From an uncultured candidate division WWE3 bacterium (lineage in GTDB: Bacteria; Patescibacteriota; WWE3; UBA101185; UBA10185), in NCBI GenBank assembly GCA_903879985.1, contig CAIRNR010000007.1, positions 69,382 to 133,381 of the forward strand: 64,000 bases of DNA, read 5' to 3'. The notes under the pieces were generated by a model. It did not search any database and was not told the origin of the DNA. It saw only the letters and a list, made by a program, of their open reading frames with translations. This document shows positions 35,366 through 38,181 of this stretch, one piece after another. Position 1 is the first letter of the stretch. The number at the start of each line of letters is the position of its first letter. Position numbers and translations under genes: made by a program.

Positions 35366-37393
35366 TTAATATCCGTAATCCCACTGGATATCGAAGTGGT
35401 TTATTCCGGTTACTGTTGTAGGCAGTAATGTGTTTAATGATGTTAAGTATATAGGATTGTATTTTACTGTTACTGCTGGATAAAGATCGTTGTCTTCGCC
35501 GAGGTCACGCCTAAATATTATGCCTTCGGCTGTAGCACCGGTAGCATCTGAAATTAGAGGCCCTTCAACCATTATTGGATTATCGGTCGGCGTATGTGTA
35601 TTGAATACTATTTTACCTTTAGCAAGCATGCCTAACATTATTTGTGGTGTGCCTGTTAGCGAATAAGAAGCTTCAGGTATTCCAACTGTATAGGCTATAG
35701 CAATATCGCTGTTTGTGATTAGTAATATTCTGTTTGTTCCTAAAGTTGTAATTGAGTTTTTAATATTTATTGTGGCAGTAGCAGCCGCATCCACATATAA
35801 GATGGCAACGCCGGTTCCAGATACAGAATAAGTAATAGGATTTACAGTAAGAGTGTTAAAAGTTGCTGCGGTCATTTTATAAATGTTTCCTGCGGTAAGA
35901 TTTAAACTGGTTGCTGTCTGTGCTGTAGTTGGAGCTGTATAGGCTAGTTTATCAATAGAAGACTGTTGATTTGTTAATAGTTTTGCATAACCATCTGTTG
36001 TTGTAGATGACGAAACATCCGTAGTTGAAATACCACCGGTACTAAATACATAACCATTGTCCGCAAAACCATTTGTAAGATTAATTAGGTTTCCGTTAAA
36101 ACTACCATTTACGGCATGTCCCGAACAAGCTGCAACTGTGCCAACTCCCTGACCATAAATATCACCATCAAGCGCAGTGAACCAAGAATTAACTTTATTG
36201 CGTTCTATTGCAACAGCTACATCTATAGTAGTCGCAGCGGATGGTGTAACGGTTACATTTGAACAGCCACCTGAAGCACCAACAGGGCAGCTCATATAAA
36301 AAGTACTACAAGTAGTTGAGTAAAACACACATATTTTTAATGTTTTTTGAGAAACAAGTATAGAATTATTGGTTATTAAAGTAGTCCCCGTGGACGACGT
36401 AGTACCTGAACCAAGCAACGGTGGATTAGTAGCAATTGAACCATCATACACAGTAACATTTGCACCACTAATTTTTGTTGATCCGGTATTACAAGTAGTA
36501 TCAGTTTGATATTTTTGCCAAACGGTCACACGCAAATCGTAGGTAGGTAAAATAATAGTGGATTTTGCAGGACAAAAGCTTGTTAAACCCGTATTATCTG
36601 TCACGATACCGCCAACTTCATATGTTGCGGCAACATTTGGAGCTGTCCAAGGAATGGTGTTACCGGATTTTGTTCCAAAGACACCTCCCGAAGGACTATT
36701 AGACCACTGATAGCTTGTTACAGTTCCATCTTGATCTGTTGCATTTGCCGTGTAAGTACCTGTCTTTCCTGCTACCAGGCTATCAGGTCCACTGACAGAT
36801 GAACAAACCGGTGGATATGTAACCGGAGTCGAAGGAGATGTACCATCTCCTGTGGGCGGTGGAGGTGAGGAGCAAGAGGAACAACTTCCGTTACAGGTCT
36901 GTGTCGAATAATATGCCCCACATGCACTATAACCACATCCTGTAGGAGTATAAGAATAGTTATAACCACAATCATAAGAAGTTTGGTAAGACCCGCAAGC
37001 ATAATTACCACACGTATAACAAGAAGTTGATGAACCACAATCATAACTCCAACAATAACTTCCATAGCAACCATGACAAACTCTGGTATATGTATAACAA
37101 CATTGCGTGGGACAATATACTGTATGGGTGGTATAACACGTTCTAGCAACGTGAATTGTTTGCGTAGGACAAGTCGTCGGATGCCAAATCCATTCCCGGC
37201 AACTTCCTTGGTTCGCACACGCATAAGATGGACAACCTCCGCCAGTGCAACACATATTTCCACCATTACAAGAGTAAGAACCACTTCCACATGAACATGC
37301 GAAAGTCACCTTTTGAAGTAATATAAAAGACAACATAAACAGTGGTATGAAAACTAAAAGACTACGTAAAAGTTTTTGAAAAATATTTTTCAT
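35366..37393 (-). CDS. Secreted protein with an extremely Cys/Tyr/Gly/Thr/Ser-rich N-terminal domain of about 170 aa, a PKD/Ig-like domain, and a Thr/Ser-rich beta-rich C-terminal region.
   Basis: Signal peptide MKNIFQKLLRSLLVFIPLFMLSFILLQKVTFA. Then CSCGSGSYSCNGGNMCCTGGGCPSYACANQGSC...CYTCGNYACGSYQTSYDCGYNYSY... (more than 40 Cys in about 170 aa), then a PPPP linker and a PKD-like block (VSGPDSLVAGKTGTYTANATDQDGTVTSYQWSNS). Confidence 0.55.
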   Translation of the reverse strand: MKNIFQKLLRSLLVFIPLFMLSFILLQKVTFACSCGSGSYSCNGGNMCCTGGGCPSYACANQGSCREWIWHPTTCPTQTIHVARTCYTTHTVYCPTQCCYTYTRVCHGCYGSYCWSYDCGSSTSCYTCGNYACGSYQTSYDCGYNYSYTPTGCGYSACGAYYSTQTCNGSCSSCSSPPPPTGDGTSPSTPVTYPPVCSSVSGPDSLVAGKTGTYTANATDQDGTVTSYQWSNSPSGGVFGTKSGNTIPWTAPNVAATYEVGGIVTDNTGLTSFCPAKSTIILPTYDLRVTVWQKYQTDTTCNTGSTKISGANVTVYDGSIATNPPLLGSGTTSSTGTTLITNNSILVSQKTLKICVFYSTTCSTFYMSCPVGASGGCSNVTVTPSAATTIDVAVAIERNKVNSWFTALDGDIYGQGVGTVAACSGHAVNGSFNGNLINLTNGFADNGYVFSTGGISTTDVSSSTTTDGYAKLLTNQQSSIDKLAYTAPTTAQTATSLNLTAGNIYKMTAATFNTLTVNPITYSVSGTGVAILYVDAAATATINIKNSITTLGTNRILLITNSDIAIAYTVGIPEASYSLTGTPQIMLGMLAKGKIVFNTHTPTDNPIMVEGPLISDATGATAEGIIFRRDLGEDNDLYPAVTVKYNPIYLTSLNTLLPTTVTGINHFDIQWDYGY

Positions 37394-38181
37394 TGAGATT
37401 CCTCGGGCAAAGGTGTTGTATCAATAATAATGCAGGCATCTCCAATAGCATTACATTCACTATCTTTGCAATAAGTAAAGATATTGTATCCTTTGGGTTT
37501 CACCGTATCCCAAAAATTTACACCTGCCTTTATAACATCCAAGTTTGTCGCCAACAAAATAGTATTGGTTTCATCACAATAAACACTAGAGGTGTGTTCA
37601 TATTTTGACGAAAAATCTTGAGCAGAAGGTGTTTGAATGTACAAATTTACCTTTTTGTCCACCGGGTTAGTATTTACAATATAGCCATAGATATAGTCCT
37701 TAGAATATGACCAACTAAAAGTATTCCAATTTGGAAATGTTTCATTTCTAAACCTTAAAAAGTTCTTTAATACTTGCTTCGTAATTTCTGGGGTGCTCGT
37801 ATCCGTATACATCGCCACTAATGAATCGTAATAAGCATCATCCTGCTTAACTATATCTATAGGAGCAGCTGTGGGCACTGGAATTTGATCACTACCTGAT
37901 TGTGCAACATTTTGCGTAGCATCTTGATTGTTGCTAGGTGTATCAGCATTACTACCAGTTGGTGTAATAGGGGTAGCTTTTTTTGGCGGAAAAAATATTT
38001 CTATATTACTACGTACATCTTTAGGAAGAATGCCATAAACAAAATAACCGATGTCTTTATAGGTCGCGGGACGAGCATCAACCGAAAATGAAAGCTTAGG
38101 TATAACGAAAGTAACAATTGCTAAAAGTACAACTACTACGACCATTACTATTGTGGTTTTACGACTTTTTGGGAGATGCAT
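37390..38181 (-). CDS. Membrane-anchored extracytoplasmic hypothetical protein, co-operonic with the Cys-rich protein.
   Basis: N-terminal TM (IVMVVVVVLLAIVTFVI). The C-terminal region has 4 Cys (CDET...CKDSECNAIGDAC). A 4-nt overlap with the downstream gene start suggests translational coupling. Confidence 0.45.
   Translation of the reverse strand: MHLPKSRKTTIVMVVVVVLLAIVTFVIPKLSFSVDARPATYKDIGYFVYGILPKDVRSNIEIFFPPKKATPITPTGSNADTPSNNQDATQNVAQSGSDQIPVPTAAPIDIVKQDDAYYDSLVAMYTDTSTPEITKQVLKNFLRFRNETFPNWNTFSWSYSKDYIYGYIVNTNPVDKKVNLYIQTPSAQDFSSKYEHTSSVYCDETNTILLATNLDVIKAGVNFWDTVKPKGYNIFTYCKDSECNAIGDACIIIDTTPLPEESQ

Follow-up and report, generated by a model that had tools for sequence, protein, structure and literature searches.

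What does a small-genome bacterium do with an exported protein that opens with a dense array of cysteines? The question is raised by a 64,000-nucleotide stretch of DNA from an uncultured candidate division WWE3 bacterium (GenBank assembly GCA_903879985.1, contig CAIRNR010000007.1; this whole stretch is called the window below), in which two overlapping genes encode B263, an extracytoplasmic protein of 263 residues anchored at its N-terminus, and A675, a secreted modular protein of 675 residues with a Cys-rich N-terminal module. Patescibacteria, or bacteria of the candidate phyla radiation (CPR), live in attachment to other microbes, and the one attachment device present almost everywhere in the group is the type IV pilus; the binding end of the pilus is so far known only in one cultivated Saccharibacterium. 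Our reading, to which we give a probability of about 0.5, is that A675 is a Sec-exported modular surface protein that acts as an adhesin in association with type IV pili, without itself being a pilin, because its family usually sits in type IV pilus gene clusters. For WWE3 and related lineages the A675 family would then supply a tangible candidate for this binding end and, if this is true, the host specificity of these uncultivated bacteria could be read and compared in metagenomes.

Domain architecture and family of A675

The original prediction had described a two-gene unit with a 4-nt overlap, the larger product of which combined a signal peptide, a Cys-rich stretch, a PPPP linker, a PKD-like domain and a Thr/Ser/Asn-rich β tail. 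Both open reading frames (ORFs) were found, sharing an ATGA, and a GAGG ribosome-binding site lies 7 nt upstream of the A675 ATG. B263 had been called the next gene; the overlap is as described, and on the coding strand B263 is the upstream partner (Table 1). The signal-peptide-like segment, the PPPP linker (residues 177–180) and the PKD-like domain were all recovered, and A675 is exported and modular, as had been proposed. More than 40 Cys had been counted in about 170 residues, which is too many: residues 33–174 hold 26 Cys (18%), along with 19 Tyr, 19 Ser, 19 Thr and 18 Gly, and the entire protein holds 34 Cys. The enrichment as such is confirmed, since Cys makes up on average 0.86% of the window's long ORFs, against which 26 or more Cys in 142 residues have a binomial probability of 1.7e-26. 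The tail kept its β character and resolved into two confidently predicted folded domains, a β-sandwich followed by a β-solenoid, both with a predicted local distance difference test score (pLDDT) above 90.

Scanned in full with HMMER, 1.84 billion cluster representatives yielded 331 hits to A675. Among 152 sequences examined, 73 share residues 272–675 of A675, always at their own C-terminus; what precedes this region differs between homologues, with PKD, TSP1, fn3, PA14-like and Ig modules exchanged for one another. Twelve homologues that were found through the C-terminal region carry the motif C-x(1-4)-C-x(6-9)-C-x5-CC-x-G-x-GCP-S-(W/Y/F)-x-C just past the signal peptide (head consensus C..C..Y.C..G.MCCTGGGCPS(W/Y).C). 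A search at the DNA level was made in the GTDB species representatives and in JGI metagenomes with a 26-nt degenerate pattern for MCCTGGGCP, which by our estimate should hit by chance about once or less in the genomes and no more than a few times in the metagenomes. It returned six GTDB loci (five candidate division WWE3 metagenome-assembled genomes and one labelled Saccharibacteria) and 28 metagenome loci. At 34 of 34 pattern loci the motif comes right past a signal peptide with Ala at −1; it lies 32–63 residues into the ORF, save at one locus, which has it at residue 121 and a candidate start upstream. The C-terminal domain is likewise present in all eight metagenome proteins that are complete or nearly so and in each genome-locus protein whose sequence extends that far (two complete). 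Word-indexed searches with A675, B263 and a 40-sequence alignment returned the queries themselves and one or two PKD proteins, the candidates being swamped by low-complexity words. The closest homologue, P0004, is 40% identical to A675 overall in the family alignment and 48–51% identical in the C-terminal domain.

The Cys module occupies the same place in 46 relatives and is a conserved domain, not low complexity. It is built from a head, a variable core and a short tail. The signal peptide that precedes it was called from its sequence pattern; in almost all of 34 distinct aligned N-termini the Ala at −1 sits 0–3 residues before the first Cys. A lipoprotein was considered and rejected, as Cys at +1 is not conserved among homologues. 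Between head and tail the core ranges from about 20 to about 170 residues across homologues, which keep its composition (Cys with Trp/Tyr and Gly/Ser/Thr) and not its sequence. The Cys count is even in 13 of 20 module members, and in four of the seven odd cases the automatic boundary had taken in the first Cys of the following PKD domain. Aromatic residues (Trp, Tyr and Phe) make up 15% of the module, and no tandem DNA repeat was found in the region that encodes it. Ten Cys modules compared with Pfam at E values up to 10 matched no family, with chance-level hits of single sequences to Trefoil (0.028) and Collar (1.9), and A675 had no match in NCBIfam at E up to 1. We take the six-Cys spacing of the head, C-6-C-5-CC-4-C-4-C, to be like the signatures of knottins and hevein, which, given the negative Pfam result, serves as a lead only; the head is also Gly- and aromatic-rich and extracellular, and A675 would differ from these folds in its additional Cys (eight in the head) and in the long, variable Cys-rich insert that follows.

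A full-length AlphaFold2 (AF2) model was built from 40 family sequences, with an overall pLDDT of 76. It predicts a helix for the signal peptide, one β-hairpin in the head (residues 33–57, pLDDT 52–69) and, at pLDDT above 90, the PKD-like, prealbumin-like and C-terminal domains; in Foldseek this model gave generic tandem-Ig matches only. The PKD-like domain was modelled at a pLDDT of about 95 and superposes on the PKD domain of ColG (PDB entry 4aqo) with a target-normalized TM score of 0.79 and a root-mean-square deviation of 3.4. Of the PKD families tested (Pfam PF22352 and PF18911), K319L-like_PKD scored A675 below threshold (15.1 bits, cut-off 27, E = 0.024) but recognized nine of the 40 family sequences, at best with E = 3.9e-12; a phmmer search of the PDB with A675 found the collagenase PKD domain. 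In the sandwich domain, C301 and C369 are invariant, homologues match CarboxypepD_reg, SdrD_B and SpaA in Pfam, and Foldseek returns SdrD, SpaA and TIE.

The C-terminal domain, modelled alone from 52 sequences, is predicted to be a β-solenoid with short helices (pLDDT 87.8, predicted template modelling score 0.87). Its best structural matches are ice-binding/DUF3494 proteins, none of them significant (PDB, E = 0.1–0.6 and TM 0.37–0.45; BFVD, E = 0.047), and Pfam gives no DUF3494 hit. A family profile found no relative of the domain in the PDB: the sole significant hit, 9kvu (E = 6e-4), maps to the upstream Ig-like region of the profile. Its invariant or near-invariant residues are W404, G410, F432, P488, Y522, Y533, I595, G611, R629, N635, P639 and G663. 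The last 15 or so residues, which follow the family pattern (Y/F)-D-(V/I)-Q-(W/F)-x-Y, are conserved and modelled at low confidence. Neither the Cys module nor the C-terminal domain has a match in Pfam, NCBIfam or the PDB, and a PHROGs search gave no hits.

The A675 family is absent from Pfam and NCBIfam, and a literature search on CPR and WWE3 pili and on cysteine-rich proteins, which covered part of the journals, found no description of it. The Cys head/tail module, the C-terminal β-solenoid and the B263 family are three modules absent from current domain libraries. Such a protein had been thought unusual for a small-genome bacterium. This is not borne out, given that the family recurs in CPR and that large Cys-rich extracellular proteins have been reported from this group (PMC4736985).

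Two further observations concern individual loci of the family. At one locus (L020, about 2260–2640, plus strand) an in-frame stop lies some 40 codons past the head motif, for which a pseudogene, strain variation or an assembly error is possible. Elsewhere, two family members lie close together, each with a B263-like gene of its own (L005, 1–834 and 2274–4505; L013, 1381–4311 and 7541–8002; L041), and the family has therefore expanded by local duplication.

Partner gene and type IV pilus neighbourhood

B263 had been described as membrane-anchored with a Cys cluster of its own, and both features are borne out: a transmembrane segment follows a basic stretch near the N-terminus, and Cys occurs at positions 202, 238, 243 and 250. 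Across 17 sequences C202, C238 and C250 are invariant and C243 is nearly so. B263 is an orphan in the word-indexed search, and its family has no match in Pfam, NCBIfam or the PDB, a PDB profile search included. The proteins encoded directly upstream of A675-like genes are, however, B263 homologues (local BLASTP, E = 4e-15 to 2e-4). A hidden Markov model of the family recognizes the upstream gene in ten of the 11 loci fetched first (L004, L005, L006, L008, L010–L014 and the window), and among the 28 metagenome loci 20 have B263-like genes ahead of the A675-like gene, frequently two in tandem, while most of the others are too short to tell. The gene pair is thus conserved.

Around this pair, genes for type IV pili recur. 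At L004 the order is PilB, PilT, PilC, pilin, PilD, histidine kinase, response regulator, a 300-residue protein, B263-like and A675-like; L006/L007 share this order, followed by a 300-residue protein. L011 reads PilC, pilin, PilD, histidine kinase, response regulator, two B263-like proteins, a 297-residue protein and A675-like. At L014/L033 a response regulator, two B263-like proteins, a 299-residue protein and A675-like are followed by a 309-residue protein and five prepilins, and at L036 PilB, PilT, PilC, PilD, pilins, a 274-residue protein and a 216-residue protein come before A675-like. L008 has B263-like, A675-like, a 285-residue protein, five to seven prepilins, a 275-residue paralogue of the 285-residue protein, PilM, PilN and PilO. 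Uninterrupted pilus operons enclose the A675-like gene at L008, L033 and L036.

The neighbours of about 274–309 residues that adjoin A675-like genes at L005, L006, L008, L009/L029, L013/L041, L014/L033 and L036 form one family. Its only Pfam match is PilX_N (PF14341), reached below threshold by four of seven members (best E = 0.0033), and a PDB profile search gave nothing significant. Their N-termini keep G12 and Q13 invariant, and in those read the position of the pilin Glu5 holds Leu or Phe; replacement of this Glu after Gly-Gln is typical of the GspK/PilX-type subunit that caps the pilus tip. Counted over the 13 distinct loci with enough flanking sequence, pilus genes or a PilX_N-like pseudopilin gene stand beside the A675-like gene in nine; pilus genes are lacking at the window, at P0004 and in a WWE3 CSP1-7-like clade, and one locus is cut off.

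A Thr/Pro-rich lipoprotein or single-transmembrane protein of about 215–300 residues also recurs beside or between the B263-like and A675-like genes (Table 1). It has no family match and is absent beside B263 and A675 in the window.

Downstream of A675 in the window lies C453, a co-directional gene whose membership in the B263/A675 unit is uncertain; no homologue was seen at the other A675-family loci. Its product clearly matches Pfam LytR_C (PF13399; 35.9 bits, cut-off 22.2, E = 1.5e-8). Among the PilM/GspL families tested (PF11104 and PF05134), T2SSL gave a weak score of 13 bits (cut-off 25.5, E = 0.066), and BLASTP aligned C453 with the L008 PilM over 36 residues (E = 0.006, in a small local database). 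The best PDB match, 2m5y, covers the LytR_C region (residues 332–404) and is not significant (E = 0.023). CPR PilM has been described with a 'GspL domain' (Meheust et al., 10.1101/335083), and the GspL-like layout of C453 may correspond to this protein, a fit that does not establish it as a pilus component.

A proposed pilus-associated adhesin and its alternatives

If A675 is an adhesin associated with type IV pili, its maturation and action might be as follows. After export, the signal peptide would be cleaved behind VTFA, as the conserved Ala at −1 suggests. Disulfides would fold the N-terminal module into a small knot-like head and a tail, which would scaffold the variable Cys/aromatic core. 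The PPPP linker and the PKD and prealbumin-like domains, the folds of which are predicted, would form a stalk. The C-terminal solenoid and terminal strand may hold A675 on a tip complex containing the PilX_N-like pseudopilin or on membrane-anchored B263, as conservation and gene order suggest, and the variable head would contact the host-cell surface. In this scheme B263 would serve A675 as a dedicated anchor or as its partner in assembly. CPR rely centrally on type IV pili for host attachment and are enriched in MdbA-like/VKOR disulfide machinery (10.1101/335083), and in Saccharibacteria non-canonical PilX tip proteins mediate host binding (PMC11623550). Within the 64-kb window neither an MdbA-like/VKOR system nor any other thiol-disulfide oxidoreductase is encoded.

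The closest functional analogues of A675 appear to be PilY1/PilC and the tapirins of Caldicellulosiruptor. PilY1/PilC, of the type IVa pili of Pseudomonas, Neisseria and Myxococcus, is a large non-pilin with a Sec signal peptide that is encoded beside minor pilins and a PilX-type pseudopilin; its C-terminal domain is conserved, and its N-terminal part is variable and adhesive. A675 resembles it as a Sec-exported non-pilin with a conserved C-terminus and a variable N-terminus. Minor pilins or a PilX-type protein are neighbours of the A675-like gene at nine of 13 distinct loci, and not in the window. A675 differs in its predicted β-solenoid, which takes the place of a seven-bladed β-propeller, in its Cys-rich N-terminus, in having no vWA domain and in belonging to a bacterium without an outer membrane. 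Pfam PF05567 (PilY1/PilC) does not hit A675, and PilY1 is not among the Foldseek hits; tip adhesins of this type are also cited in PMC11623550. Tapirins mediate attachment to the substrate, and their link to pili was inferred from gene position (10.1101/359786). Compared with A675 their polarity is reversed, with a conserved N-terminus and a ligand-binding C-terminal β-helix, and they are not Cys-rich; the tapirin model (NCBIfam NF051896) does not match A675, and Foldseek returned no tapirin structure from the PDB.

In TM7x (Nanosynbacter lyticus), the CPR pilus proteins PilX1 and PilX2 have signal peptides of a non-canonical type and carry large accessory domains, and PilX2 is needed for host binding and is proposed to be a tip adhesin (PMC11623550). 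Both are pilin-like, with an N-terminal helix and a jelly-roll or β-propeller, and would correspond to the PilX_N-like neighbour rather than to A675, which has no pilin helix: the type IV pilin model (PF07963, N_methyl) and motif (G|F-T-L-x-E) found no hit in A675, and the pattern scan of the window was negative. Peribacteria encode large Cys-rich extracellular proteins with signal peptides, for which attachment has been proposed as the function; unlike A675, these average about 1655 residues, have Cys spread along their length and show weak similarity to Myxococcus Cys repeats (PMC4736985). Taken against these systems, A675 best fits a pilus-locus-encoded non-pilin adhesin built from new modules. 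A disulfide-knotted extracellular module, possibly an adhesin tip, had been among the roles offered by the original prediction, and it is the one that best accounts for the conserved Cys pattern and the mostly even Cys counts; it also fits the adhesion-type neighbouring domains and the pilus gene context.

Several points weigh against this reading. What would connect A675 with type IV pili is gene neighbourhood, and A675 has no sequence homology to PilY1, to tapirins or to any pilin. The window itself contains no pilin, PilX_N-like or pilus-machinery gene over its 64 kb, C453 with its weak PilM/GspL likeness being all it offers, the CSP1-7-like clade has no pilus genes within 8 kb, and P0004, the closest homologue, stands alone, with neither B263-like nor pilus genes nearby. 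The loci found by the DNA pattern were chosen by the motif itself and prove its position and linkage, not its conservation. As to the fold, AF2 models the variable core (residues 58–179) at pLDDT 30–40, which leaves the knot fold tentative. The hypervariability described below was seen in one clade, the sequences of four other clades being identical or too diverged for the comparison.

Some of this evidence would suit a surface adhesin unrelated to the pilus filament, tethered via B263 or its own C-terminal domain and found near pilus genes through co-regulation by the adjoining histidine kinase and response regulator. Across loci the B263-like partner is found more consistently than pilus genes, which are missing from the surroundings of three distinct locus types (the window, P0004 and the CSP1-7-like clade). 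The two regulators precede the module at L004, L006 and L011, a response regulator alone precedes it at L014 and lies near it at L008, and the signal peptide is of Sec type, not prepilin type. We regard this as possible, on the unlikely side, because a PilX_N-like pseudopilin gene adjoins the A675-like gene at seven distinct loci, because of the pilus operons at L008, L033 and L036, and because no motif for wall binding (sortase, LPXTG, S-layer homology or other) was seen, a conserved strand-like C-terminal tail being present instead. A secreted polysaccharide-active enzyme, with a catalytic β-helix, a hevein-like carbohydrate-binding head and PKD linkers, acting on glycans of the host wall, is improbable. 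A binding module, PKD domains and a conserved C-terminal domain are a common combination in secreted glycanases, a β-solenoid is predicted here, one clade carries a PA14-like domain, and GH18 and GH39-like proteins are encoded elsewhere in the window. In the C-terminal domain, however, Asp, Glu, His, Lys and Ser are nowhere invariant, a point against an enzyme; its invariant and near-invariant positions, among them W, P, R, N, Y and G, offer no acidic or basic catalytic residue. A675 matches no glycoside hydrolase or lyase family in Pfam, no such enzyme is among the Foldseek PDB hits, the viral library yields only a pectate-lyase-like phage protein (E = 8.5), and the best fold matches are to the non-enzymatic ice-binding/DUF3494 proteins (E = 0.05–0.6).

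The remaining alternatives concern the Cys-rich stretch itself. Instead of forming a disulfide knot, it could bind metal or act in redox chemistry, as a metallothionein-like module or a scaffold for Zn or an Fe-S cluster; its CxC, CC and CxxC spacings, its 18% Cys and the lack of an oxidoreductase gene in the window would suggest this. We consider this very improbable: the module forms the mature N-terminus of a secreted multidomain protein, outside the cell, its Cys counts are mostly even, and its core varies between a fixed head and a fixed tail. Metallothioneins are typically poor in aromatic residues, of which the module has 15%. CPR, moreover, generally encode MdbA-like/VKOR systems (10.1101/335083). 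A keratin-like matrix had also been suggested and is not supported; the likeness is only compositional, the module being a single N-terminal domain of a modular protein. An artefact, be it a wrong frame, a frameshift or translated low-complexity DNA, has practically no chance of being the explanation, even though a GTG-started ORF of 172 codons (36772–37290, minus strand) is open in a second frame over the Cys-rich region. That ORF has neither homology nor other support, and it is open because of the TGT/TAT/GGT codon bias of the coding frame. A single uninterrupted frame of 675 codons joins the signal peptide to the conserved domains, a second assembly, 99.95% identical, has the same A675 gene, tandem repeats are absent, the Cys positions are kept at the protein level in homologues less than 40% identical, and the relatives have the module in the same place.

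Returning to the proposed pilus-associated adhesin, the core deserves a closer look at strain level. The WWE3 CSP1-7-like clade comprises eight sequences (L012, L016, L025, L027, L030, L034, L035 and L039), of which four distinct complete proteins and the nearly complete L012 copy were compared. Outside the core they are 92–100% identical (97% in the signal peptide), the last windows of the alignment excepted. The Cys core, from the head (...MCCTGGGCPSW.C) to the tail (TGGTCGWCTG), is 48–60% identical with many insertions and deletions; the domain that follows the module looks PA14-like. In more distant pairs the head is the best conserved part (0.6–0.8) and the core the worst (0.2–0.3). We suggest, tentatively and with the odds against it, that on the type IV pili of CPR the Cys/aromatic core, held between the cystine-knot-like head and the tail, is a recognition cassette that is hypervariable between strains. 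If this were true, the cassette would be a new variable-loop system on a disulfide scaffold, which would set the host range or serve to evade phage or host defences, in a role analogous to that of the pilin hypervariable region or of the targets of diversity-generating retroelements, and it would be made by insertions, deletions and recombination. Targeting by a diversity-generating retroelement was considered and rejected, the variation of the core being dominated by insertions and deletions.

Gene arrangement and other features of the loci

The features of the B263/A675 region are collected in Table 1. The minus-strand run that begins with the isoleucyl-tRNA synthetase (IleRS) gene continues beyond C453 with the genes for ribosomal proteins L21 and L27. 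The promoter-like site falls within the 51 bp that separate the stop of IleRS from the start of B263, and the region holds no more sites of this kind than expected from shuffling; consensus matching, the only method used, found no terminator-like site between B263, A675 and C453.

Table 1. Features of the B263/A675 region of the window and positions of the recurrent Thr/Pro-rich neighbour at other loci (residue numbers refer to the named protein).
Feature	Position	Strand	Basis or remark
IleRS gene	41187..38233	-	First in the minus-strand run around the Cys-rich gene
Promoter-like site, TTTGCA-17-AATAAT with TG	38189..38217	-	Consensus match only
B263, N-terminally anchored extracytoplasmic protein of a conserved partner family	37390..38181	-	ORF, upstream of A675
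B263 transmembrane anchor, residues 9-27, TTIVMVVVVVLLAIVTFVI, preceded by KSRK	38101..38157	-	Sequence; conserved in family alignment
B263 C-terminal Cys motif, YCKDSECNAIGDACIII	37423..37473	-	Family consensus C.D..C...G..CI[IL]
A675, secreted modular protein	35366..37393	-	ORF; stop codon 35366-35368
A675 signal peptide, residues 1-32	37298..37393	-	Sequence pattern; probable signal peptidase I cut after VTFA
A675 Cys-module head, residues 33-65, CSCGSGSYSCNGGNMCCTGGGCPSYACANQGSC	37199..37297	-	Spacing C-1-C-6-C-5-CC-4-C-4-C-5-C
A675 variable Cys/Tyr/Gly/Ser/Thr-rich core, residues 66-166	36896..37198	-	Not alignable between homologues; pLDDT 30-40
A675 Cys-module tail, residues 167-174, CNGSCSSC	36872..36895	-	Family pattern G[TS]C..C, then Pro/Gly linker
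A675 Pro/Thr/Ser linker including PPPP, residues 175-195	36809..36871	-	Sequence; low pLDDT
A675 PKD-like Ig domain, residues 196-274, bracketed by Cys197 and Cys274	36572..36808	-	Pfam, phmmer, AF2, Foldseek
A675 prealbumin/CarboxypepD_reg-like β-sandwich, residues 275-398	36200..36571	-	Pfam hits of homologues, AF2, Foldseek
A675 conserved C-terminal β-solenoid (predicted), residues 399-675	35369..36199	-	73 homologues, AF2; ends in strand-like tail HFDIQWDYGY
C453, 453 residues: cytoplasmic domain of about 290 residues, transmembrane segment 289-312, Ser/Thr/Pro linker, LytR_C domain	33958..35319	-	ORF, co-directional, downstream of A675
Thr/Pro-rich neighbour, L004	6415-7317		
Thr/Pro-rich neighbour, L006	6389-7207		
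Thr/Pro-rich neighbour, L008	8544-9296	-	
Thr/Pro-rich neighbour, L011	6450-7343		
Thr/Pro-rich neighbour, L014	5371-6270	-	
Thr/Pro-rich neighbour, L036	2338-2988	-	
Thr/Pro-rich neighbour, L025	631-1527 and 2232-3059		

The window has a G+C content of about 37%, and the genes around the pair are ordinary housekeeping genes of a small-genome bacterium, among them a cluster for cell division and the wall and the genes for a ribonucleotide reductase, glycosyltransferases, UvrA and UvrC. Another large surface protein, of 1469 residues, is encoded at 78–4487 (plus strand); it has LamG-like, bacterial Ig, fn3 and CarboxypepD_reg domains and does not carry the C-terminal domain of the A675 family. 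At 16529–17210 (minus strand) a gene for a PemK/MazF-type toxin of 128 residues overlaps an upstream ORF of 113 codons with no family match, the two probably forming a toxin–antitoxin pair, and a tRNA gene (16468–16540) adjoins them. Genes for Wzy-like, flippase-like, GH39-like and GH18 (chitinase-like) proteins cluster at 19257–24212, and the locus of P0004 likewise has a GH18 gene nearby (L002, 2280–3431). The gene for the large subunit of ribonucleotide reductase (41609–44682, minus strand) contains a TSCPD domain, is probably of class II and adjoins a cobalamin adenosyltransferase gene.

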